The position numbers and the translations under genes are program-made. The notes beneath the pieces were generated by a model. The model made no database searches, was not told the DNA's origin, and saw only the letters and a program-made list of their open reading frames with translations. DNA of 64,000 nucleotides, taken from contig CM097885.1 of the NCBI GenBank assembly GCA_044892525.1, forward strand, positions 35,032,001 to 35,096,000. The letters run 5' to 3'. The stretch comes from Schmidtea polychroa. Taxonomy: Eukaryota. This document shows, piece by piece, positions 27,272 through 64,000 of the stretch (positions within the stretch are counted from its first letter, which is position 1; each line of letters opens with the position of its first letter).

Positions 27272-28254
27272 TCAATGACAACAGATCAAATTCATGATTT
27301 CATTGATTTTTTCTTTAGTGTTGATCTTTGGCTATCTGTTCATGATGAGAATTGCTTCTTTGATTCTGACATTTTTCTTTTGAATGTTTCCATTAGCTAT
27401 GATTTCGATTGAAATATTTTTTCTTTCCTCTGTTGGCTGACACTGCCGGAGATGTCTGCTCAACGAGGATGTTCCACCAGGATCTATGTGTTCTTTAACT
27501 CTTTGGTGCAAGGTCCTGAGTGTACTTCCAATGTAGATTTCATTGCATACATTGCACGTGATGCAATAGACGATGTTTTTTCTAAAGCACATATCTTTCG
27601 GTGTCTGACAGTTTTTCATTGTGCAATTGTTTTCTCTATTTATCTTGCCTGCCAGAGCCCTTCTCAGTGTCCAAGATTTATGTGCTATATTAATTGGAAG
27701 GCCGGTACGTTTAAGTTCTTTCAGGATCTTGAAGTCGAGTGTGTCACTGATGAATGGGATATTCAGATAGAAATATTTCTGATTCTTTTGTGTTAATTCC
27801 TTAGATCTTTTTGGGGTAGAATTCATTCTTTCAATGTCCTCACCTTGGTATCCGTTTTTATGTAGGATTTTATTGAAATTTGATTGTTCGTTAAAGTTTT
27901 CGTTTTTTCCCTGTATCGATTTACTATTCTTCGTTTCTCGTTTCTTATGACATGTACTTTCTGTAAGCATGGAAGCGCTGATCTTTGGTGCATAAATATT
28001 TCTTTGCGAGTTGGTTTTCTGTAGAACCCGTATGTTGGAGTATTTCCTTCTATTTTAATTCTCAAATCAAATAAATTGAGGGATCCATATTCTTCCGGAT
28101 ATTCGATTTCGAACTTAATATCTCGGTGAGCCGCATTGAATGTATGAAATATTTCCTCCGCTTCTTTTTTGCTTTTGGTCGTGATGGAGATATCATCTAC
28201 ATATCTTGCATAGAAACCGATGGGTTTTATGGTCCTCAGTGTCTGTCGTTCGAG

Positions 28255-28255
<1 letters not shown>
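27272..28255 (-). mobile_element. 5'-truncated Penelope-like retroelement (RT C-terminus + GIY-YIG), frameshifted; 3' UTR extends to ~26630
   Basis: GFYARYVDD, YRKPT, and CFRKNIVYCITCNVCNEIYIGSTLRTLHQRVKEH; abuts an (AAT)n tract at 28256-28335. Confidence 0.9.
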
Positions 28256-28338
<83 letters not shown>

Positions 28339-31153
28339 TTTATTATTAATTACACACATATATATATCATATAAAATGATTGACGTTTATTCGAAGGTTA
28401 ATGTGTAATTCTGACAAATTCATCGCTATTGGTAAATTATGAAAGGGGTCAGTGTTTTGTTCTATATAAATTTTGTTCATATTAAATGTTTTGGGATCAA
28501 GAAATAAATATTTTTTTGTAATTTTATTATTGGTTTCCACAGAGGAAAGAGGACTGTTTACTTGATCGCGAGTTATTGTTTCTGCAGTTTTTCATTTTCA
28601 TATCCGCTCCTTTTTTACCTCCTTTCAGTCAAACCAACCTAAATTATAGCAAAGCTTGTAAAACAAATAAAAGATTAATTCTAATCAAAAATTAACATCA
28701 AAATGAAAAACTTTATTAAAATTTAATTTTGTATACAAATGCTTACATTTTAATGTTTCGTTTATATTTTATCATTTAATTATAAATTTAAAATTAATTT
28801 TGAATATGTGAGAAAGTATTTTTGATGAAATATTTTGCTAACAAATAATATATTAAGTGTTTAGGTTTGCCTATAAACATGTGTCCATTTTCTCTAGGAA
28901 TAATTTTTGATGAAAAGAAATATTATAATTGACGTTTGATAAGATTAATTAAATTACTATTTTTAAAATAGTAATAATTATTTAATTATTTAATTTTCCA
29001 AAATTTGGAATTAATCGATCATTATTTTATGATTACTTGAAAATATTATTTTCTCATTATTATATATTAAACGTCAAAATAATTCAAAATGCAATCAAAG
29101 TACAATTTTAGAAAGGTCTTATTAAAATATTTTATCATATCCAATGAAGTTATTCTATGAAATAGCGAAATGTACTGATTTACCAATCAAAAACCTTCAC
29201 CCAAGATTTACCGAAATTAATTATTCATTAACTCTAGCAATTATTAATCGTAATAAAAATAATTTTAATTGATTGAATTAGGAATTTCGCAATTATAAAA
29301 TAATTTAATCGAATTTTCAATGGTGAAAATCGATTCCACAGAATATTTTTCGAAAATTCCATTAATAAATTTTTATCAATACCGAAAAAAAATATATGTT
29401 ATGAAATCGGAGAATAATAAAATATTCGGCTTTGAAATGCTTCTTATATCTTGTTCACATTTAACTAATTGTTTGCTTTCAAAATTTATTTTCCATTTTG
29501 ATCAAATTCTTTTGAAATACGATGCCAATAGTATGAAGAATTTTTTCTCTTTTTTCCCATATCGACAAATCACATGAAATATCTCGGTTGATTTTGTTAA
29601 AAAATTATTTCTCACAAATTTCTGTAATTAATTTCTATAATTGACTGATTTTTTTTAATCAAAATGCAGAATAGAATAAATTTTCTTTCATTTTGTTTTT
29701 AGAATTTTCATGATTTTTGTTTTTTTTAAAATAAATTCCAAAAAATTTTATTAAAAAAATATATAGATTTCTGAATGGTTCCTCTTTTACTTTTTAATAA
29801 CAAAATGTTGTCAGTGTTGTTGAAGCACTTCAATATTTAAACTGCACTTTTAACTTTAAAATTTAGCTTTAATTATTCTGTATTTGCAATTCAGTACACA
29901 CATTATTCTTTCTTCATTACCTTTATTCTGTTAATATTTTTAAACTAAATTAAACTGCAATATACTCATTTTTTGGTCACCTTCGATCTATTTTCATGTT
30001 TTGATGATATTTGATTTTTTTTCATAAAATAAATAAACTAAAATCTTTATTTAAAATAAAAATGCAATATAATATAATAGTTTTTGATATTGAGGTATAT
30101 TTTGAGAACTTATGATGACAATGGAGATTTTTTTGATAGACTCAAAGACTTTTAATATTAAAATAAAATTAAAAATTTTTGCAAATAATGTTACATTTCA
30201 TAAAAATTTTTATTTTTTATATGCTAAATAAAATTGTGATTTGTACAACATGTCACAATAAAAAGTCCTAGATGTTTTTTACTAATGTTCACTGGATATA
30301 GAAAGAAAAGTGATGAGTGAGTCTTGGCTGTTAGCAAATTTATCAAAGTTAATGACAAATAATAACAAAAAATAATATCTATCAGTGAAAAGTAGTAGTT
30401 GAAATAATTTATCAGAATTCAAGGTTTTACTTAGATTAATACAAATTAATTAATTAAATTAATTTACTTAAAATAAATATTTTTAATTTATTATAATTTT
30501 TATAATACAAACAGTTAGATCTGGATATCGAATAAATTCATTTTCCGTTATACAACAAAAAAATTTGCGCTATATTATGTTATTTAAAAGAAAAACATTT
30601 AATAATTTCCAAAAATCATTTTTTCGGTATTTTTTTGAAATAGTTTTTGATTTATTTTAATAAATATTTCCTTTATAAATTGAACACAATAAAAAAGCGA
30701 AATCCTTTAATTAGATAAATTTGCTGATATTATTCACAGAAAATACCGAAAGTTAATCGCATTGATATCTTTCGACAATTGTATAATAATCTAATTATTA
30801 ATTTGATTCATACATTTCCCGGACAGCCTAGAATTTCCCTGATCATACCTGTGACAATGATCAAATGTTAGAGAGTTTCTTTCTATAAATGGGAATTGAT
30901 AAAATTTATTATAACCAAACAGAAGACCGTTAAATATGGAAATTTTTTTTCTGATTCAATCACTGATATAAAATTGCGACAAATTTAACTGGAAAGTTAT
31001 ATGAAATAAATTTTTAGATATTAAATATTTTACATAAATAAAATGTATAATTGAATGCAAAACATAGATCTGTTGGGTTTACTAAATTTTGGTAGGAATA
31101 AATTTACAGCATAACTTCACATGTTTTTATATAAAAACAAAAAGACTCAACTA

Positions 31154-47729: not shown

Positions 47730-48266
47730 AAAATTAAAATTAAAATTAAAATAAAATAATTAAATAAATATCATTTAAAATTCAAAATGACAAAAACTAA
47801 AACCTTTAAATATTTTAAAGCTTCTATAATTAGCTTCTAGAAGCCTAATAAAATATTTCAAAATATTTTCAAATAAAGTCTCCAATAACCATTTATATAC
47901 GCTATTTAAATATTTCAATAAATGTGTCAATTTTGATTTTTAAATCCTATCTTTTGAAAGTATATTTCCTAAAATTTTCTATATTATTTTAATTATTACT
48001 TTAAATTTATAATATTTTTTATTTTTTATATATTATCAGATATTCTCAAGGTGAATGACAACAGACCAAATTCATGATTTCATTGATTTCTTCTTTAGTT
48101 TTGATTTTTGGCTGTCTGTTTATGATGAGAATTGCTTCTTTTAATCTGACATTTTTCTTTTGGATGTTTCCATTAGCTATGATTTCGATTGAAATATTTT
48201 TTCTTTCCTCTGTTGACTGACATTGTTGGAGGTGTCTGTTTATCGAGGATGTTCCACCAGGATCTA
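47730..48266 (-). mobile_element. Short 3' fragment of the Penelope-like family (endonuclease end + 3' UTR)
   Basis: DPGGTSSINRHLQQCQSTEERKNISIEII..KEAILIINRQPKI matches the 27.3-kb copy, and the downstream non-coding sequence is shared. Confidence 0.85.
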
Positions 48267-48284
48267 AATCTTTGCGTCTCCTGC

Positions 48285-48326
48285 ATATTACTGATGAGAG
48301 CCAAAAGCTCGAAACTAGTCTACTAT
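48285..48326 (+). ncRNA. Minimal type-I hammerhead ribozyme with a canonical core
   Basis: atatta-CTGATGA-gagc-caaaa-gctc-GAAA-ctag-TC-tactat: perfect stem II, palindromic stem III, stem I with one mismatch. Confidence 0.75.
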
Positions 48327-48639
48327 TGGGATTGGCACTGGGTATCACCAAGCTTGTACTGTTTATTTTATTGAAGTGAGACATCCGACAAAAAAATTTT
48401 ACACCATTACTTTATAAGTTAAAAATGCTAAAGGTAATCGGATGTACTTGTAAACAGTTTCTGTGTATCGACTAATTTTTTAGTCCGCTGAGGTGATTAT
48501 GATTTTTCATACGCCATGTTTACAAGTTTACAGATTTTTTCTATGACCAAGCTAATTTGCAAGTGATGTGATTTCCAGTGTACCGGGGAAAGTATGCAAT
48601 TGAGTTGAATCAGCAATATAAAATAACTTTATAAAATAA

Positions 48640-49760: not shown

Positions 49761-49976
49761 AGTAGTGTAGGAACCTAGCACTTGACCACTCACACCCCAC
49801 AGCTTCCAACTCCACAGCCCTCAATTATTACCCTTTAATGTAAAAAAATAACAGTTTTTTTAAACCTTTTAATCTTTTTAACCCCCAAATTCTAAAACAC
49901 TCACTCTAATAAAGGAGATGATGGAAGGGGAAAAAGGCGAAAGGCGAAAGGTCAAGTGCTAGGTTCCTACACTACT
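49761..49976. repeat. Left terminal unit bounded by a perfect 27-bp inverted repeat
   Basis: AGTAGTGTAGGAACCTAGCACTTGACC (49761-49787) and GGTCAAGTGCTAGGTTCCTACACTACT (49950-49976). Confidence 0.95.
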
Positions 49977-50059
49977 TGCAATCTGCGCAATTTGCTAATA
50001 TAAAAAATATTTTAAAAATTCTAAAACACCCCACTCCAATAAAAAAATATTTTTAAAAA

Positions 50060-53000
50060 ATGAATTGTGAAGTTTGTAAAAAAACTTTTAAAAATAAATC
50101 TGCACTAATGTCTCATCAAAGATCAAAGATTCATTTATTAAAAACCAATCAACTAAATAATACCAACTCGAAAATTTGTACAAAATGTAAACAAAGATTT
50201 TTAATTTCTGGATACGATCGACATTTTGAAAGTTGTATTGGTATTCCTGAAAATAGAAAAAAATTTGAATGTCCAATATGTAAAATAAAAATTACTACAG
50301 AATTTTATTTTAAAAAACATGTAAAAAAATGTACCATAGAAAATATAGTCCCAACTCCCAAAGAAGATGAAGAGGAAGTGTATGAAGAAGAACCTGAACA
50401 CATTGAAAAAGAAAAATATAATTGGGATGGTTTTAATCATATAGATTTATTTGAAGAAGCATTTCAAGATTCATCGGTCTCAGAATATGTAAAGAAAAAC
50501 AAACAAAATATAAAAAATTCAATGGAAGATGCTTTGGATAAATTTGGTAAATCAAGATTTAATGTTATAAAATATAAAGTTATAATCCAGGCAAGATATT
50601 GGAGAGGAGAAGAAGCAAATACAGTTCCTTTAATTTCTGATATTGAAACACCATATAAATATTTATATTCAACCAAAGGGGTTAAAAAAATTATTAAAGA
50701 AATAATTAAAGAGGCTCAAGAACAACAAGAACAAGCAGAACAAGAATTGAGGGAATCAGATTTAAGATTTCACTCCTTTCAAAATATGCAAATTATATAT
50801 TGGAGAGGGGCACCCCCTAACCCCAAATCATACATCCCTACACCTTTTCGTTCTAATTCTCTTGTAAACGTGGAAAATAGTGATAATAAATGTTTTCAAT
50901 GGTCAGTCCTTGCACATTTACATCCTCAAGCTACAAACCCTCAAAGAGTATCAAAATACAAACCCTATGAGGGTGAATTGATATATCCAAAAGAGTTTAA
51001 ACATCCAATGAAAATTTGTGATGTACCAAAATTTGAAAGTTTAAATAATATCAAAATTAATATTTATGAATATATACACCATAAACATGATGATTTTAAG
51101 AAACATATCATTCCAATATACATTTCAGATAAAGAATTATTAGAACAAGATAGAAATCGGGAAATAGATCTTTTAATATTAGAGGAAGACATTGAAACCC
51201 CCATAGAAGGGGATTTAAATATTGAAAACATACAAGAAGAAAATATTGAAAGAAAACAACACTATGTTCTCATAAAAAACTTTCAAGCTTTTATGAGATT
51301 AAAAACACAAGTCAGAGGGGGAATAACATGTAAAAGATGTCTTCATTATTCAACATCTCCATCTTCAATAATTAAACATGAAAGGTTGTGCAGTAAAAAC
51401 CAACCAGCTTTAATTAAAATGCCTTTACCTATAAACGCAAAGATGCTTTTTAAAAACTTTTCAAACCTACTAGAAACATAAGGAGTAATATATGGATACT
51501 TTGAAGCCATAAATATAAAACAGGATCTAGACCAAGAATATTTCAAACTAATAGAAAAAAATAATCTAAATCTACAAAATGGGAGGACATGAAAGCCCTT
51601 TTAAAATTAAATAATAAATCCTACACTGTAAAACTAACAAAACAAGTGGCATCGGCCTATAAATTATTTTTCAAAAGTAATTACCCCGAGATTATAAACT
51701 CTGAAGAATTTTCATTTAGAGGATCCTCGGAAGAAGAGGTTTTAAATCATTTTACTAAAGACATGAATGATTTGGAACATAAACATTTTAAAACCTTAAA
51801 AATAAAACATTTAATAAACTTTTCAGAACAACAATGGGAAGAATATGAAGATTGCACAACTTGCTGGATGTGCAAACAGCCATTTGAGGATCAACTCTTT
51901 GAGGATCAACTCTTTGAGAATCAACTCTTTGAGGATCAAGGTCTTCCAGAGTCTATTGAAGAAGAAGAACAAAGATTATTCCATGAGGGTCAAACTCAAA
52001 ACATAAAAGTTCCTGACCATGACCACTTTAAAAAAGAAAATAATTATAGGGGAGCAGCCCATAAAAATTGCAATATAAACTGTAAAAGACCTGCATTTAT
52101 ACCGGTTATATTTCATAATCTTTTTGGTTATGACATCCACCTATTTATAAAACATCTAGCTGTAAATGCTAAAAATTCCTTTAAAGTCATAGGACTTACA
52201 AAATAAAAATATAAATGTGTACAATATGGGTGTTTAAAATTTATAGATTCTCTAAACTTTTTACAAATGTCTCTAGATGGAATATCAAAAACCATGAAAC
52301 CTGAAGATTTTACATTTACAAGAGAAATATTAATAAAAAATAATATTCCAGAACATGAATTTCCAACCTGTTTCGCTAAAGGAATCTATCCTTATGATTA
52401 TATCAACTCTTTTGATTGTTATAATGAAACATCTTTACCAGAGAAAGACTTGTTTTTTTTCAAAATTAAATCAAGCGGGTATAACTGATCAAGAATATAC
52501 TCGAGCAAATAAAATGTGGGAACTTTTCAAATGTAAAAACATTGGGGATTATACTGACATGTATTTATCCCTTGATGTTTATATCCTTGCAGATTGTTTC
52601 GAAGGATTCACAAAAGCCTTTACTCTTAAACCCTATAATTATATATCTTCTCCATCTTTAGCTTGGGATATTTTATTATATACTGTATGGACCTCTTCTG
52701 TTCCAGAGGATATACACCTATTAATTGAAATCGACATGTTTAATATATTTAAAGAAAATATTCGTGGAGGTGTTAGCTCCGTGATGGGAGATCGAGAACT
52801 AACAGCAAACAACTTTATATCTCTCCACAAGAAATTCTTTAAAGAAGATGAAGATTATGTAGAAATAAAAACTAAACAGGATTTAAATTTAATAATGGAG
52901 GGTTTAAATAATCCATCTGAAATAATGTATATTGATGCAACCGCTCTATATTCGGGAATCATGACTCAATATCTTCCAATTGGAAACTTTGAAGTCTCCG

Positions 53001-54433
53001 AGGATGAAATCTCTAAAATTTTAAAAACTGAAAAGGATTCAGAATTTGGATATGTTATAGAATGTGATCTTGAATACCCAGATGATATAAAACCTTCAAC
53101 TAGATACTTTCCATTTGCACCAGTAAAAAGAAAAATAGATCCAAATGAACTTTTACCTTGGCAGATTGAACAAAATAGGCCTACAACCACAAAGTTTTTA
53201 TGTGATCAAACTGATTAAACCTATTATCTTTGTCATTATAGATTATTACAATTTTATCTTTCTCATGGAATGGTTTTAAAAAATGTTCACTCAATCATAA
53301 AGTTTAGACAACTTCCATTCATGAAAACCTTTATAGAGGGAAATATCAAATCTAGGAATGAAGCAAAAAGAAATGGAAACGCTTTCCTCGATATGATTTA
53401 TAAACTTTTAAATAATTCAGTCTTTGGAAAGACAATGGAAAATGTTGACAAATATACACGTGTGGAATTATTAACAAATAGTCCAAAGGATTTTGCAAGG
53501 TATAATCGAATGCTTGGAAAACCTACATTTAAAAATGCCCAAGTATTCTCCGAGAACCTTTTAGCCGTTGAACTTCAAAATAGTGAAAAGACTTATAACA
53601 AACCAATCTTTATAGGCTTTTCAATTTTAGAATTATCAAAACTTCAAATGTATGAAACCTATTATGATATCCTAGTGCCACATTTTAAAAATAGAATATC
53701 TATGCATGCAATGGATACCGACAGTATGTTTTTAAAAATATATAGTAAAAATGTGAAAAAAGAAATATCAGAAAATGAAACCCTAAGGAATGTAATAAAT
53801 TCATCTGGAGAATTATTCACCTTTAAAGATGAAAAACCAAACACCCCAATACTTGATGCTGTATTTATTAGATCTAAACAATATTCACTTGAAATGATTG
53901 AAGGAGTAAAGACTGAAACCCATTCAATAAAAATAGAAGAAAAGGATTATACATTTGAAAGACCTATAGTTGAAAAGGTTAAAACATCCAAGGAAAACAA
54001 AAGTAAAGGAATACAAAAATGCATATCAAAAAGATTAACACATCAAGATTATAAAGATTCTCTAAATAAAAATCATGTAGATAAAATAGTTGAAGTTCAT
54101 CAGCTTAAATCTGAGAGACATAACATGTATTTAGAAGAATCAAATAAAGTTGCAATATCAAATTATGATGATAAACGTTGTATACTAAGTAATTTGAAAA
54201 CAACACTTCCTATTGGGAATAATTTAATCCCGATAATAAAAAACTTGAAAAGATTAAATGACTTGTATGCCACAAACTTCACAGATGTCCAACTGAGTAA
54301 ACTTGAAATTATAAACTTAAAATATTTAAATACTAACCCTGATTACATTCAAAGCCTATCAGAAAAAGAATTTGAAGATCATAGATTGGAGATTAAAAGA
54401 TATGAACAGTCATCCATGAAGGAAAGTCTCTGA
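50060..54433 (+). pseudogene. polB: Protein-primed family B DNA polymerase with N-terminal zinc fingers and an endonuclease VII-like insert; disrupted
   Basis: DNKCFQWSVLA, VIYGYFEA (Exo I), DHDH..YRGAAHKNCN, FHNLFGYD (Exo II), KGIYPYDY, IRGG, YIDATALY, KLLNNSVFGK, DTDS; stops at 51479, 52204, 53216; frameshifts near 51585 and 52455. Confidence 0.93.
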
Positions 54434-55640: not shown

Positions 55641-56222
55641 TTACGTCGAAGTCTTTAACCATTTCTCTCTATATTGTTTTTTAGAATATTCATCACCTTT
55701 AACCTTTGTAGTTTTCAACTTTATAACTTCATTTTTAATATCCCTTATTATTTGATTTGATTTCATTATTTCTTCATCTGTTAGGATTCCATCTTCCAAG
55801 GCTTTTAATTGAAATAAAAATAATTTTGATATCCCCAAGTCGATTGTCAAACAAACTTCACGATATAAACTTTTCTTTTTTGAAGTATAAGATAAAGAAA
55901 CTATTTCAGTCAAGAAAGAATCTGCAACAGAAATACTTCCAAGTATTACGGGTGCAAGAGTAACAACTGGTAAAGTTATAGGTAAAACAATTGTAAGTAT
56001 TGCAGATGAAAATCCTAAGGAGTAACCTATAATCTTTAAAGCTGTATTCCCTTTATTCCATCTTTTTTTAATTTTTTTATAATGCTTTAGTAAGTCTTGT
56101 AAATGTAAAGTTTCTGATTTAAATTCTTTCACTCTCATAACTTCAAGTTCTGTAGGAGCAGAAGGAGTCAATACTGGATATCGTACTATTGGACTTTGTA
56201 CTTCTGGACTTCGTACTTCCAT
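55641..56222 (-). CDS. Polinton/adintovirus membrane protein (hydrophobic hairpin, KAL.DG.L..EE motif) with N-terminal YPxL and PSAP
   Basis: YPVLTPSAP; IIGYSLGFSSAILTIVLPITLPVVTLAPVILGSISVA; KALEDGILTDEE. Confidence 0.75.
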   Translation of the reverse strand: MEVRSPEVQSPIVRYPVLTPSAPTELEVMRVKEFKSETLHLQDLLKHYKKIKKRWNKGNTALKIIGYSLGFSSAILTIVLPITLPVVTLAPVILGSISVADSFLTEIVSLSYTSKKKSLYREVCLTIDLGISKLFLFQLKALEDGILTDEEIMKSNQIIRDIKNEVIKLKTTKVKGDEYSKKQYREKWLKTST

Positions 56223-56230
56223 TTTAATAA

Positions 56231-57079
56231 TTAAAAAAATAAGACTTTATTATCTGGTACCAACGCTCGCATATCATAAGAAACTCTTTTTGAGAGAATG
56301 TCTTTATACAATTCTATCAACGCTTTACGAACTTCATCAACATCAACCTTTTTTTCATAAAATATTAAATCTATATAACTTACAAGTGTGCTTTTAAAAA
56401 TAATATTCTTACTTTTAACTTTATGTGTTTTATGTGAATCAGTTTTATCATGCCAATGTCCGTGTGGTAAATCATAACCAGTTATTATAACATCATCCTT
56501 TTCAAACTTACTATTATAATCACATTTTACAAACTATTTCATTGTTTCACCATCATCATTAAATAAAAAGAAATAAGGATCAATAATCTTTACAACCATA
56601 AAACAAGACCATTCTTTACTATTTGTTATTATTAAAGTTGGTTCTATAAAATGTTTATATCTATTGGGTAATAATGTATTATTCTGTTCTAATTCAGCAG
56701 CTCTTTTTCTAATAGTGTGTGTTGTGTTAATGTGTGTTGTATGAGACTCTAATTTAACAAGTCTTGCATTAAATGATGTAATCATCTCATTTATTATATT
56801 ATATATTGTATTAATTTTATTATCCATAAGTCTTTTATTAAGCTTGGATTCTATAGAATTACTCGATTTAAGAGACTTAAGATTTTCATCTACATATTTT
56901 TTATTAGTTGCATCAAAATCATTGATTGGAGGACCTAAATCTTTTATCTTGTGAGCATTTAAATTTAAATCTCCCTTCATTGAATCTCCTACTTCATTAA
57001 TAAATCTTTTTTCTGTAAGGTTTATAACATCTTCATCTTTTAATCCTTCATTAGATAATCCTAATTTATTATAATTCAT
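56231..57079 (-). pseudogene. Fibre/adhesin-like protein of ~282 codons with one in-frame TAG (56534-56536)
   Basis: GDSMKGDLNLNAHKIKDLGPPINDFDATNKKYVD fibre-type motif followed by a coiled coil; frame stays open for 100 codons after the TAG. Confidence 0.65.
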
Positions 57080-57088
57080 TTTTATAGT

Positions 57089-57816
57089 CTAAACTTGTTT
57101 CAAATGTAAACACATTGAAATCTTTTCTCCATTAAAATTAATTAATTCTCCATTTTCATCAACAATTCTAAAATGAATATCCATTAGGTTTTTCTTTCAA
57201 CCATTTTATATCCAACTCGAACAACATTGGAAGGAAAGGAATGTAAAATATTTGCATGTTTACCATTATTGTATGATCCCATTATACAATCACACTCTAT
57301 ATTTATAGAATTTATATTTGTTATTTGTATAATATTTTTAGATTTAATAGTTGATGGTAGATATCCTCCAACTTCAAAACCTAAAATAGTATGAAAGAAA
57401 CTAGAAGCATGAACATCAAGTTCAACATTTTTTAAAGTTGCAATACATTTTGAAGTTTGAATATCTACTTTTATTTCTACGGCTCCATTTATTTCTTTTA
57501 GAATTGCTTTAGCCAAATCTACTATTTCATATGATCCTGGTTCGATTGTTATAGTGTTGTATTCTTCAGTATTTATCATTGTCTTGGGGTTAATATACTT
57601 CTTAACTATAAGAAATTTATTATTATTAATATTTATATTAAAAATAGTATTAAAACAGCTAAACCACAAGAGTCCTAATTCATAATTTAAATTTTGATCT
57701 AAATTTATTGAATCTTCAAAATTTATACTAAAATCTGATTCATTTGAATTTATTAATAAACTTCTTGAATATTTATCTGACATTATGTTTACCATTTTTT
57801 TTAAATTATCTTCCAT
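57089..57816 (-). pseudogene. Minor capsid protein (penton, single jelly roll); frame broken near the C-terminus
   Basis: YELGL..NTIFNI..NNKF, TIEPGSYEI, INIECDCIMGSY..ILHSF; the C-terminal IHFRIVDENGELINFNGEKISMCLHLK lies in another frame. Confidence 0.8.
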
Positions 57817-57875
57817 TTTTATAATAGAGGTTTTAAATCATTATAAATTTCTTGGATTATAGATTCAAAGCCCTC

Positions 57876-58247
57876 TCATTTGGACGCATTCAATCTATAC
57901 AAAACATATAAACTTAAAATACCACATATTTTAGTATTATTAGGTTGAACTTGTAAAGAATTAAAGGTGTAGCCTTTTTCAAGATAGTCTTCTACTTCTT
58001 TAGTGGGTTTAATCCCAAAAGAATCAAAGTATATAGATTTATTATATATACAAACCCAATGAGATCCTTTTTCATTTGAATCTTGATAATTGATTATTAT
58101 ATTATCCTTTGGTCCTTTCAGACTTGACAATTCATCATTCATTAATATTTTATTTTTTAAATTTAAATAATTTTCATAATCTTTTAAATCAAAATTTGTT
58201 TTTACATTTATTCCAAATGTTTTTAAAAAATCTAATATACTAGTCAT
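57876..58247 (-). CDS. Adenain-like cysteine maturation protease
   Basis: GSHWVC, YFDSFG, QVQ..ICG: His-Asp-Gln-Cys in the adenain order. Confidence 0.9.
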   Translation of the reverse strand: MTSILDFLKTFGINVKTNFDLKDYENYLNLKNKILMNDELSSLKGPKDNIIINYQDSNEKGSHWVCIYNKSIYFDSFGIKPTKEVEDYLEKGYTFNSLQVQPNNTKICGILSLYVLYRLNASK

Positions 58248-59077: not shown

Positions 59078-59641
59078 TTATATACCATCAATGTACCATT
59101 CTTCTTCTTCTTCAGATTCTGATTCAAAAAGTTGTAAATATAAACCTTTACCATTTTTAAGTTTACAAAGGCATCCTTTCTTCAAAGATTTACACATTTT
59201 TTTAAAATCATCTTTATCTTTTGAAGATAAAGATTCAGATGTAGAAATTTGATTTTTTAAAAAATCATTTAAACCTCTACCTTTATATGGATCGAGATAT
59301 AAACCTCGACCTTTATAAGGATTGAGATATAAACCCTTACCCTTCTTTTTCATTGAATCGATTTCAGTTTGTAATTTTTCTTTTTCTAGGTCTGTCTTTT
59401 GAGATTCTTTAGCTTTTTGAACTGTATTTGCAATTCCTCCAGCTATTCCAGCAGCACCTGATAAACCTGCAATGATTGCAGGTATTAAAGCCATTAGGGG
59501 AAGAATGCCACCTTGCTTCATCTGTCTCTCTTTAACTTGTTCTTTTACATGTTTTCCAATAAAATATTTTTTACCATCAATTACAACTGATTTATTTTTA
59601 TTTGAATTTATTAATTCTTGTAAAGATTCTTCAGTTGTCAT
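59078..59641 (-). CDS. Core/membrane-active precursor protein (adenovirus pX/pVI-like organisation)
   Basis: KQGG|ILPLMALIPAIIAGLSGAAGIAGGIA and four G(K/R)GL repeats. Confidence 0.65.
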   Translation of the reverse strand: MTTEESLQELINSNKNKSVVIDGKKYFIGKHVKEQVKERQMKQGGILPLMALIPAIIAGLSGAAGIAGGIANTVQKAKESQKTDLEKEKLQTEIDSMKKKGKGLYLNPYKGRGLYLDPYKGRGLNDFLKNQISTSESLSSKDKDDFKKMCKSLKKGCLCKLKNGKGLYLQLFESESEEEEEWYIDGI

Positions 59642-59657
59642 TTTATAATAAATAAAA

Positions 59658-60441
59658 ATGGATACTTGGAAACCAATTTTAACTCGGCACAAGAGTAAAT
59701 TTAATAATAAATTATTTCCTGATAATTTTAGATTATTAATCGTTGGGTCTTCAGGATGTGGAAAGAATGTACTTCTTTTGAGAATATTACTAGAAGAATG
59801 TTTTTTAGATTATAATAATTTAATCTTTTATTCTACAACCATAAATCAACCAGAGTTACAACTTTTGAAATGTGGATTTGAAAATAAATTAACTAAAAAA
59901 GCTATAATTGATATTTTTAAAAATCAACATAGATGTCCTGACGAGGTTTTTCAACCTTTTGATATGATTGATTGGTATAAGGAAAAGATTTTAGAATCAG
60001 ATATTGATAATAAAAGTGATTACATTTCTGAGAATGAATGGATTAAAGTTTTATTCTCTAATAAACCTAAAGATGTTTTACATTGTGATTTACTTCCTAA
60101 AGATGTAAAGAATCTAGTTATATTCGATGATGTTGTTAATATGAAAAACCAAGAGATTCAAAATAGTTACTTTACACGAGGTCGACATAATAATTGTAAT
60201 GTTATTTATATTTCTCAAACTTATTATGCTTTAGATAAAAATTCAATAAGAAATAATTCCAATTGTTTTATATTTAAAATTAGAAAAGCGTGATAAGAAT
60301 ATGATTTATAGTGATTTATTTTCAAATGTTGAACCTGATAAGCAAATGTTTGATATGTTTGTAGATAATCATTGGAAAGAAAAATATAATTATATTTATT
60401 TGGATAGAGAAGAAGGAGAAATATGGAAATGTTTATTTTAG
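59658..60441 (+). pseudogene. A32/FtsK-HerA packaging ATPase, frameshifted near 60278
   Basis: Walker A GSSGCGKN, Walker B LVIFDD, RGRH..IYISQ; the C-terminus continues in another frame to TAG 60441. Confidence 0.9.
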
Positions 60442-61794
60442 AAATCTGTTTTCTGTAGTTCATTATTATAAAATCTACCTAATATTTTTTTCATTATTTA
60501 AATCAATGATGCTATATGTTATTGGAATTGTATAATGTATTTTATTTATAATAAAAATTTCATTTGTCCATTTTGCTGTGAATCCTTTTTCAAATTTATT
60601 TTTATATTTAAATATTCTTACTCGGTCACCAATTTTAAACTTTGGTTTTTCATTTACCACTTTAGCGGTTTCAGGATTTATAAGTTTTAAAGGATTCAAG
60701 GAAGCATTTAAAGGTGTTGATTTTATAGAACTATGTACATCATTATTATATTCATTTACAATCTTTTGTAACAATTCATTGTTCCATTTTTGTTTTCCAA
60801 TAGCAGTAAAATATTTCCACATTTTATTTTTTAATGTTCTATTTAATCTTTCAACTACAACTGCTTTTCCTTCATTTTCTGTTGAATATAATTTAATATC
60901 ATTTTCATTTAAAAACTTTGTAAAAACTTTGTTATAAAATTCTGTTCCTTTATCGCACCATAAATATTTTGGAATTCTTTGATGTTCTTCAAATATATTT
61001 TCAAATGCTTCTGTAATAGAATATCCTGTTTTGGTTTCTAAACATCTTGCAAAAGCAAATCTCGTATATAAATCTATTACTGTTAAAATTATTTTATATT
61101 TTTCAGGGTCTGATGATTTGGTTGGCATAAAGACTAAATCAGCAGACCAAGTATGATCTTTTTCATGTACTTGAACTTTTAAATATTTTTTATTTTTTCT
61201 AAATTCATGGTGTAATTCGTTGGCATATTTTATTTGTGATTCTGTTGGGGTTTTTTAATTTGTAGAATCAAGGGTGTGATTCTCAATATCTGCTTGTTCA
61301 ATAATCTTTTTATTAGCAACATCTTTTGCTATTCTAGGAAGTCCTGCTCCAAAGAAGATCTTACCTTTCATTGCTAATTTAACTAGAGCTCTTTGAATCT
61401 TTTCTTGGGTTGATGGGTTTTGAATACTATTTAAATCATGTATTAAATTAACATCTGCAAGATGTCTATCCCTAAGGTCTTCAGAATAATAAGCAATATC
61501 ATGTTTTAAAGCTGCTTGATCAATTCTATTCACTGGTTCTTCTCCAGGTTTGGGATTATTATTTTCATCTAATCTAAGGTCTAGACGTGTTCCTGGTCCA
61601 GTATAGTTGTGATGGAATAAATGTCTTTCACCTGGATATTTTTCAGTAGTAAAGGGTTTTAATATTGAAGATGTTGTTTTTGAAGATTGAAGGTCTCCTC
61701 CCACTCGAGATGTATGTTTTTTAGTTTTAACATGACTTGCTTTATGATGTTTTCTAACTTGACAATTACAAATTTCACATTTTCAATAAGACAT
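60438..61794 (-). pseudogene. Zinc finger-phospholipase A2-retroviral-like DDE integrase, in one reading frame
   Basis: ATG 61794, CEIC..H..H; NYTGPGT..DQAALKHDIAY (parvovirus VP1u-type PLA2); ELH..WSADL..WCDKGTEF..VERLNRTLK; stops at codon 4 and 61255-61257; frameshift near 60485. Confidence 0.88.
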
Positions 61795-61810
61795 TTTTAA
61801 AAGTTAAAAA

Positions 61811-63082
61811 CTATGAATCGCCTCGTACATTTTCAATTATTGAAATCTTTCCACCATATAATTTCATTTCTATTTTCTTTTCTTCTAATATTAATGTATA
61901 TATTTTTGCTTTAAAATTAGAATTCTTTGTTATATGAAGTGTAACATCAACATTATTTATAGCTAGACGATCGTCTTGATCTGATACATTTATACAAAAT
62001 ATAGAATATAAATTTTTGAAATCTTCTAAACTTAATTGTGGTTCAACTTTAAAATCATAACATGTTTCAATATAATTTAGATATGGGAATATGTTTTCAT
62101 TATTTTCAATATTAAATTCCATTCTATTTATTGGATAATAAGAACTATTTAATTGAATTTGTATTGATTTTAAATTATCATCTCCAATCTTTTGAATAAA
62201 CAAGTTGTTATTTTTTTGGAAAGATGAATCTACTTCTTTGAATCCAATCAAGATATATCTTGGTCGGTATGCTAAATTTGCTACCTTTATAGAATATGTT
62301 GAACCCTCTGTCATACTAAATTCACTACAGACTCTATTTAAATAATTTACATTTATAGATTTGTTGGAATTTAATCTTTCAAGGAGTTTAATTTCAGATT
62401 GAGGATTTAAAGTGCATTCAGGTATATGTAATTCAAGTGTTGATAATTTTAATTTAGCTTTTGTATCTACACCTCCATAGAACAATTTCTTATCACCTTC
62501 TAGTCTATTACAGGTTAATTTTATAAAAACATTATGAAGTATACGATTATAGTTTTGAAGGAATCCAAATAAGTGTTTTAATTCAAAATAACCTTCAAAT
62601 TTTTTAGATTTATAAAGTTCAACTCTTTTATAATAACCATAATTTATATCTAAACCATCTTTATCTAAATCTCCTTTATTAGTATCAGGAATCCAACCTG
62701 TTAATTCACCATATTCATTTTTATAATCACAACCAGTTAAAATAAAATTTAACATTGTAGAATATACTCCTGGATGTAAAACAGTTTCAATTTCTGATGA
62801 TCCTAGTTTTAATCTCATGTTGGAGAATAAATTTGGAAAGAAATTATTTTCTAGGGTTATATCTTTGTTTGCTTCAATTTCTAATTCAATTTTATAATAT
62901 AATTTAGCATTACAAATATCTATTGGGTTTGATGTTTGAAGAGATTGAAAAACTATATCTCCCCTACGATTTAAGTTTGCAATAGATCCCGAGGTTGGAG
63001 AGATTTTTAAAATATCAATTTTTTTAATTTCATGCATAAATTCTTTATTGTAATCAAGATTTAATTTATTTTTATTACTCAT
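61811..63082 (-). CDS. Major capsid protein (double jelly roll), intact 423 aa
   Basis: LENNFFPNLFSNMRLKLGSSEIE, LKHLFGF, RPRYILIGF, YPINRMEFN, YSIFCINVS; size and position match Polinton MCP. Confidence 0.85.
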   Translation of the reverse strand: MSNKNKLNLDYNKEFMHEIKKIDILKISPTSGSIANLNRRGDIVFQSLQTSNPIDICNAKLYYKIELEIEANKDITLENNFFPNLFSNMRLKLGSSEIETVLHPGVYSTMLNFILTGCDYKNEYGELTGWIPDTNKGDLDKDGLDINYGYYKRVELYKSKKFEGYFELKHLFGFLQNYNRILHNVFIKLTCNRLEGDKKLFYGGVDTKAKLKLSTLELHIPECTLNPQSEIKLLERLNSNKSINVNYLNRVCSEFSMTEGSTYSIKVANLAYRPRYILIGFKEVDSSFQKNNNLFIQKIGDDNLKSIQIQLNSSYYPINRMEFNIENNENIFPYLNYIETCYDFKVEPQLSLEDFKNLYSIFCINVSDQDDRLAINNVDVTLHITKNSNFKAKIYTLILEEKKIEMKLYGGKISIIENVRGDS

Positions 63083-63143
63083 TTTTTATATTACTAAATT
63101 AGCAATTGCGCAGCTTGCTAGTTTTTAAGATTTAAAATTTTTA

Positions 63144-63773
63144 GAATTTTATAAATATAAAATTTTAAAAAATGACAAAAATCCGAACCCTAATAGCGCA
63201 GTGGGAATAGACTGGCACAGTGGTTCAAATGGATAGTGGTTCCCAACTGACATTATTTTTTTTCAACATAAAATAATATTAAAAATTTGAAAATAATTTT
63301 TGAAAATAATTTTGAAAATAGTGTGGGTATCTTGTATATTTTATTTTTTTATTAATTAATTAATTTTTAAACATAAATATGAAAAAAAAATTATTGAAAC
63401 GGGTGTGGTGGCGAACCGGTAATTATCGCCACCAGTCTTTCGAACACACCCGGATCGATCCCATAATGTGCACATTTATTTCTCAGTTGTTTTCGGACCT
63501 CTTTCGGATTCGCTTTCGAATTTATTTGTACTTTCGAGCAGCACGCTTAAAACAAAGAAGCGAATAATAAGGTGTGCTGCTATTATCAAATTGATTCTGA
63601 TGTATGAGTCTGGCCAGCTTGTATGTTGGAAGAGATTTGATAAACGAAAGAGGTTGAAATTGATCCGGATCAAAAAACTGTTGAGAGGACAGTGAAAAAA
63701 AAACAAATACTCTCAGTCCTCTCAGAGCAGTTTTACTATTTCATAAATTTTTTTATTCTTCAAGGCATCAAGA
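63144..63773. other. ~630-bp segment flanked by a perfect 19-bp direct repeat (probable secondary insertion)
   Basis: TTAAGATTTAAAATTTTTA at 63125-63143 and 63774-63792. Confidence 0.55.
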
Positions 63774-63803: not shown

Positions 63804-64000
63804 AGTAGTGGATGTATGGCCTTCACGGACGTAACCTTTTTCCGCGGTTCCCTGTCAAGGGGATGGGGGGATTACAGATTTGGGTTGGTAAATTAGGGGT
63901 TTTTATGAATAAAAGATGTAAAAATAAAGGGTTAAAAAGATGGAAATGTTTAAAATTTATTAGGTTTTGAGACGGGCGTCCGAGGGTGGGTTGGGTCCGT
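63804..64000. repeat. Probable right terminal unit, truncated by the window edge
   Basis: Begins AGTAGTGGATGTATGGCCTTCACGGAC; the window ends GTCCGT, the first 6 nt of its reverse complement; the interior mirrors the left unit (GGGTTAAAAAGAT..GTTTAAAA, CCTTTTTCC). Confidence 0.7.

Follow-up and report, generated by a model that had tools for sequence, protein, structure and literature searches.

The gene on the reverse strand at positions 60438 to 61794 of the window (the whole stretch of 64,000 nucleotides of Schmidtea polychroa DNA that was analysed) is a dead copy of a real and widespread fusion between a PLA2 and an rve integrase, a fusion that has already been annotated but is unstudied. 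Intact relatives carry both enzymes in one open frame, with both active sites and the Gly motifs at the domain borders conserved, and the stops found in the window copy are peculiar to that copy. On balance, it seems probable from these sequence features that the intact protein is a virion-core polyprotein precursor, which would be packed and then cut by the maturation protease to give an entry lipase and an integrase that accompanies the DNA.

The element and its PLA2-integrase gene

The gene lies within a decayed Polinton/Maverick of the adintovirus type, which begins at about 49761, continues past the end of the window at 64000 and is surrounded by an AT-rich eukaryotic genome. Several Polinton/Maverick hallmarks are present, namely a protein-primed PolB, an rve integrase, a double jelly-roll capsid protein, an A32 ATPase and an adenain-type protease. 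PolB is itself decayed and was found in four pieces on the forward strand (50057..54433, PF03175 E 6.5e-8 on the last piece); the A32-type packaging ATPase is also on the forward strand (59652..60293, PF04665 E 1e-9) and the capsid gene on the reverse strand (61811..63085, PF21738 E 1e-25). The PLA2-integrase gene follows immediately on the capsid gene, shares its strand and is separated from the capsid stop by 16 bases. The adenain-type (vUlp1) maturation protease (57876..58247, reverse strand) was recognised by its HW, FDSFG, Q and CG motifs. It had no Peptidase_C5 match of its own in Pfam, and BLASTP aligned it with P0283 (32% over 77 aa, E 1e-11) and with P0292 (E 3e-5), the latter itself matching Peptidase_C5 with an E of 3.6e-4; its C-terminus may be shortened. 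The reverse-strand ORF at 57184..57837 had no Pfam match and is probably the minor capsid protein (penton), judging by its likeness by eye to Adinto6405_Penton. A separate gene for a pX-like core protein occupies 59078..59809 on the reverse strand (PF05829 E 5e-4, below cut-off; 36% over 69 aa to P0074). The ORF at 55641-56246, with two hydrophobic stretches and no Pfam match, is perhaps a membrane-active accessory protein.

The element family is present in many copies, with 27,572 contigs of run X1 mapping onto 60300-63200 in a copy survey that covered reads from 4 of the 24 listed runs. As regards terminal inverted repeats and a target-site duplication, AGTAGT is present at 49761 and only 27-29 nt inverted matches exist between the ends, the right end being cut by the window. 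An AGTAGT-initial unit lies at each end (49761-49976 and 63804-64000). The left-end unit has perfect 27-nt inverted arms and terminates in ACTACT, the partner arm of the right-end unit seems by eye to begin at about 63995, where it is cut by the window end, and the arms of the two units differ in sequence. A motif around CTGCGCAATT, possibly a promoter or terminal-repeat remnant, is common to 49983-50010 (forward) and 63090-63107 (reverse), upstream of PolB and of the capsid gene, respectively. The N-terminus of PolB (50060-50140) is a C2H2 finger (zf-met E 4.5e-10) that resembles the finger on the PLA2 gene. Elsewhere in the window, fragments like a DDE transposase and a Penelope-type RT/GIY-YIG were seen by eye at 1874-2584, 27332-28386 and 48046-48411, amid many AAT microsatellites. 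Adintoviruses as defined in PMC11071296 have an integrase with a C-terminal chromodomain. A chromodomain (PF00385) was absent by Pfam from both the window and P0002; since the Adinto6405 entry of that paper, like the window clade, also ends without one, this lowers only the strict wording of the definition.

The fusion gene, all features of which are on the reverse strand, starts with an ATG at 61792..61794, with P0002 aligning from residue 4 at 61788. A C2H2-type zinc finger (C6, C9, H21 and H27; 61714..61779) was read by eye, the PLA2 ORF having no zinc-finger match in Pfam at E 0.1, and is followed by an RVGG-D motif at 61693..61707. The parvovirus VP1u-type PLA2 domain at 61378..61623 (PF08398 E 1.5e-9, above cut-off) has the calcium loop, HD, Y and D features of its type in YTGPG (residues 64-68), H98-D99, Y102 and D114. 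Next come a K-x-x-x-G-x-G-L motif (KIFFGAG-L) at 61339..61362 and a variable linker at 61219..61338, the distance from the K to the ELH motif being 10-73 residues in relatives. The rve integrase extends from ELH onwards (60438..61218; D219, D281 and E315; PF00665 E 1.3e-11, above cut-off), with no chromodomain. The initial annotation had also counted the zinc finger as part of the protein; the C6/C9/H21/H27 pattern can indeed be made out by eye, but it occurs in only 6/46 relatives (CxxC in 13/46) and is thus no constant part, and as a defining part of the fusion it was rejected.

The frame of the window copy is broken by a TGA at codon 4 (61783..61785), where P0002, P0181 and P0180 are open, and by a TAA at codon 180, inside the linker (61255..61257), where P0002 and P0181 are open. 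The initial annotation had described the ATG, these two stops and the common frame correctly and had located RVGG-DL and FGAG-LP where we find them, but its statement that the frame is broken only by the two stops is inexact, since there is a third lesion, a frameshift at 60485..60491 before the last 17 codons. The tblastn alignment of P0002 shifts frame between 60491 and 60487; the integrase frame stops early at 60475, a different frame holding the final 17 codons as far as the stop at 60438-60440. A length variant at this site was present in contigs of 4/4 runs (among 40 of 197 variant rows, in which the two stop positions do not figure). It had further been noted that no in-frame ATG lies between the TAA and the WSAD motif, and this agrees with our reading, in which the first Met is residue 43 of the integrase ORF and WSAD residues 36-39. 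Residue 142, which is upstream of the TAA in the last PLA2 helix, is an in-frame Met.

Spread of the fusion and its active sites

On comparison with other proteins, the fusion is both real and widespread. In all, 93 intact, full-length fusions of PLA2 and integrase were found, which form 50 clusters under 70% identity, with 31% to about 46% median identity to P0002. The closest relatives of the window copy, P0002 and P0181, are 89% identical to it and open at both stop positions. The window PLA2 ORF matched 31 longer proteins, comprising 11 PLA2-integrase fusions and 20 Lottia gene models. Among the best 150 of 821 cluster representatives in the PLA2 search, 17 were joined to the start of an integrase, and among the 131 others 14 reached the integrase-start motif before their end, and a second PLA2 query gave 59 matches, 28 of them with both Pfam families (hand count). 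When approached from the integrase, PLA2 was carried by 27/30 and 64/120 of the best-listed relatives (of 428), and the three without PLA2 among the best 30 have their first residue within the PLA2 tail or at the junction. A metagenome scan produced six short loci, one of which crosses the PLA2-integrase junction in frame; scans of IMG/VR produced no match.

A quick tree of 91 integrases places the window in a branch of 44 rows (SH-aLRT 100) that contains no stand-alone integrase: apart from the window itself, its members are 39 fusions and 4 proteins whose first residue falls within the PLA2 tail or the linker. A further 12 fusions are scattered in the tree, several of them among chromodomain-bearing stand-alone integrases. 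The 16 label changes in the tree include late-starting gene calls, and therefore no number of origins is claimed. A conserved stop with a separate integrase start, the pattern that the initial annotation had set against its own reading, was not found in relatives, since the nearest relatives and the 93 fusions all have one open frame. Outside the main branch, other PLA2 subtypes are found on chromodomain-bearing or other integrases (P0333, P0341 and P0325; P0262, P0303, P0306 and P0317), two of these proteins being Oculina patagonica gene models, which suggests repeated fusion or splitting. In the Lottia gigantea gene models P0013, P0025, P0030 and P0031, the PLA2 is followed by the integrase-start motif, after which the sequence is unrelated, and these are probably mis-spliced versions of the PLA2-integrase fusion.

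Both enzymes are under selection in the relatives, as judged from their catalytic residues: the His, Asp, Tyr and second Asp of PLA2 and the D, D and E of the integrase are kept in 50/50 fusion clusters, and the second Gly of the PLA2 calcium loop in 39/50. The structure model of P0002 (pLDDT 80.6, pTM 0.52) matches the foamy-virus intasome (E 3e-15) and also the integrases of a MELD virus and of mavirus (the latter with E 8e-13). The PLA2 model matches the PLA2 domains of densovirus VP1 (best E 4.5e-4), as well as rice sPLA2 (Z 7.5, rmsd 3.8, 90 aligned) and bee-venom PLA2 (Z 5.7); the Z of 7.5 is below the tool's caution level of 8 and the remaining rows are helical bundles, and the match is modest for a helical fold. 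A sequence search of the PDB with the PLA2 ORF returned nothing significant.

Gly motifs at the domain borders

Counted on profile columns, with 4 of the 50 clusters unmapped and with a PLA2 profile that was built from fusion rows and so is biased in favour of the motif, the last PLA2 helix is followed by GG or GxG in 44/46 mapped clusters (GxG in 40/46), against 2/1484 eight-residue background windows in the relatives' integrase parts; since the motifs are inherited, these are not independent events. Before the PLA2, GG was present in 32 of the 38 relatives with a long enough N-terminus, the background for GG/GxG being 2/357. K145, G149 and G151 were invariant in 12 aligned rows. The integrase part of the window has no GG/GxG motif, whereas the pX-like ORF has six. 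Furthermore, Gly motifs border unfused PLA2 as well (59/87), so that they would be inherited and not made for the fusion.

A parvovirus-type PLA2 flanked by GG/GxG, as in the window, is also found in PLA2X of Alpha adintoviruses (Starrett et al. 2021, PMC8502044) and in Sf Maverick CAP (PMC5803895), where it is proposed to be a core protein, and PLA2X entries in the supplement of PMC11071296 are flanked in the same way. In PLA2X as defined, the PLA2 and a C-terminal pX-like part form one protein and the integrase is separate, whereas in the window the pX-like part is a separate ORF and the PLA2 is carried by the integrase. Since the borders of unfused PLA2 and the pX-like gene bear the same motifs, the module looks like one half of PLA2X that has moved onto the integrase. 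In P0074, a pX-like part, a zinc finger and a PLA2 are joined in one protein with GG/GxG borders, in the reverse order of PLA2X. P0245 has several tandem repeats, each ending in GG, between its zinc finger and PLA2.

The initial annotation had likened the two motifs of the window to adenain-type sites. This holds insofar as Gly-Gly-type motifs are conserved at both borders, but not for the strict adenovirus-protease consensus, (M/I/L)xGG or (M/I/L)xGxG, which was rejected since it fits 9/46 downstream and 4/38 upstream sites and neither RVGG nor FFGAG of the window; the commonest downstream P4 is Lys (18/24). The related protease of ASFV processes polyproteins at Gly-Gly-Xaa (PMC7178854), a form that the upstream motif takes at the domain border, the downstream one being chiefly GxG. 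The core protein of adomaviruses is found as smaller products in virions and has (MIL)XGXG or L(LR)GG motifs (10.1101/341131). Six relatives carry an adenain-type protease in frame before the integrase at the protein level (P0275, P0283 and P0298; P0292, P0322 and P0336); these fall in two separate branches of the quick tree, and 5/6 have (M/I/L)xGG just before the integrase start. We regard the protease-integrase fusions as the best independent support for the predicted cleavage. Stand-alone integrases have their ELH 3-25 residues in from the N-terminus (n=25), which suggests that they begin at about the point to which a cut would trim the shorter fusions.

In the P0002 model, GxG forms a five-residue coil between helices, and in the PLA2-only model it is a one-residue kink in a long helix; the upstream GG lies in a low-confidence segment in both (pLDDT < 50 in the P0002 model). 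The kink would be consistent with a different and somewhat unlikely reading, that the fusion works uncut, or is cut only at the upstream GG, with GxG as a hinge that ends the last PLA2 helix and the PLA2 tethered to the integrase-DNA complex. A P4 that is mostly Lys and not M, I or L, and a linker as short as 10 residues, would also fit. However, the same class of motif borders unrelated partners (the protease-integrase fusions, the pX-like ORF and the pX-zinc finger-PLA2 protein P0074), the linker varies freely in length and sequence, unlike that of a docked two-domain enzyme, and the pTM of the whole model (0.52) likewise speaks against such a tethered arrangement.

It is improbable that two products are made with no polyprotein stage, the PLA2 from the long mRNA and the integrase by initiation at an inner AUG or from an mRNA that is shorter or spliced, since no Met is found among the nearly invariant columns, only 12/46 relatives have a Met after the GxG, and there would then be nothing to keep 93 proteins in one frame across a free linker. 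An inner start is nonetheless possible given that 46/46 have a Met somewhere between the His of PLA2 and the integrase's first Asp (near the junction in 28/46); the database proteins P0244, P0307 and P0297 begin there, and the window has M142.

We give little credence to a role outside the virion, in which the PLA2 would help the integrase-DNA complex to reach the nucleus or to exit the cell from inside, during within-host transposition. The high calcium that PLA2 of the secreted type requires is found in endosomes, and this, like the position of the gene immediately behind the capsid gene, argues against such a role. PLA2X, moreover, is classed as a core protein (PMC8502044). The expression of coral integrases clustered apart from that of capsid genes (PMC11131425), which would favour the idea but is not specific to fused forms. 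Finally, there is next to no chance that programmed read-through occurs at the TAA or that two separate genes lie in frame by chance, a candidate that was rejected: beyond the stop in the window copy nothing speaks for it, and since the closest relatives and the 93 fusions have one open frame, and the copy has in addition its codon-4 stop, its frameshift and a PolB in four pieces, the two stops are on this comparison copy-specific decay and not read-through.

Prior naming, known systems and the proposed precursor

Whether the fusion had been described was left open by the initial annotation. It had already been labelled twice, among the 59 places where 'PLA2' occurs in supplement file 2 of Buck et al. 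2024 (PMC11071296), as Adinto15303_PLA2-Integrase (BK066759, sediment) and Adinto6405_PLA2-integrase (BK066529, acoel worm), and 'never described' was therefore rejected; in the main text of that paper, as available, 'PLA2' does not occur. Like the window gene, both entries have a GG-PLA2 N-terminus joined to an rve integrase (by eye); unlike it, they have no zinc finger in the first 120 residues. They are names in a sequence file, which as available gives neither a cleavage model nor the spread. Discussion of the fusion or of its cleavage was not found in the literature searched, as available and including PMC11161782, 10.1101/2023.08.22.554363, 10.64898/2026.06.19.733378 and PMC11131425, and the available part of PMC10301787 has no relevant passage; Repbase, subscription reviews and some supplements lay outside the search, so that more prior naming is possible. 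The papers searched contained neither the spread of the fusion (a whole integrase branch together with scattered cases among gene models of coral and limpet) nor the splitting of PLA2X nor the joining of protease to integrase, and 'n-Integrase' does not occur in supplement file 2 of PMC11071296 as available.

The window PLA2 has the same calcium loop and HD/Y/D residues as parvovirus VP1u PLA2 (PF08398), and its model gives the fold match to densovirus VP1, but the parvovirus PLA2 is tethered to a capsid protein and that of the window to an integrase. The enzymes of retroviral Pol are loaded as a precursor and freed by the viral protease, and a comparable route is taken by the core proteins of ASFV pp220/pp62; for the present fusion this is an analogy only, with no shared precursor. 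In mavirus, a virophage, the lipase is a separate, unrelated gene, and we have seen no PLA2-integrase fusion reported for it, unlike the window family. The rve integrase of mavirus, which gave the fold match noted above, is reported to be packaged in the particle (review PMC6723459), and there is a maturation protease in mavirus too. PLA2 genes are known in polintons (PMC3671162, PMC5803895, PMC8502044), whose lipases are likely to be packed in virions (PMC4642659) and whose particles are unobserved (10.1101/2023.08.22.554363). The literature searched yielded no virion proteome of a polinton.

We therefore return to the precursor that is packed and cut. In intact elements of this one integrase lineage, a single protein runs from an optional zinc finger through GG, PLA2, GxG and a linker to the rve integrase, the PLA2 half of PLA2X having presumably moved onto the integrase together with its flanking Gly sites while the pX-like half stayed as its own gene. 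This precursor would be packed into the capsid and, in the course of maturation, cut at the Gly sites by the cysteine protease of the element. During entry, the PLA2 so released would attack the endosomal membrane, and the freed integrase, with a new N-terminus near the starts of stand-alone integrases, would travel with the DNA and integrate it.

The fusion bears on the question of how an incoming polinton obtains its integrase. That an enzyme presumed to act in entry is joined to the integrase in a conserved fusion, with candidate protease sites, constitutes sequence evidence for the integrase as virion cargo, and the fusion and the protease together offer a two-protein test that needs no virus. 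More tentatively, polinton integrases in general may be protease-activated virion cargo, with the N-terminus serving as a socket for core partners joined via Gly-Gly sites. If this is true, the partners in the socket would include the PLA2 in several lineages and the maturation protease in at least two. On this same general reading, a DNA virus would have a retrovirus-like Pol precursor, by which escape from the endosome and integration would be tied to one and the same incoming particle.
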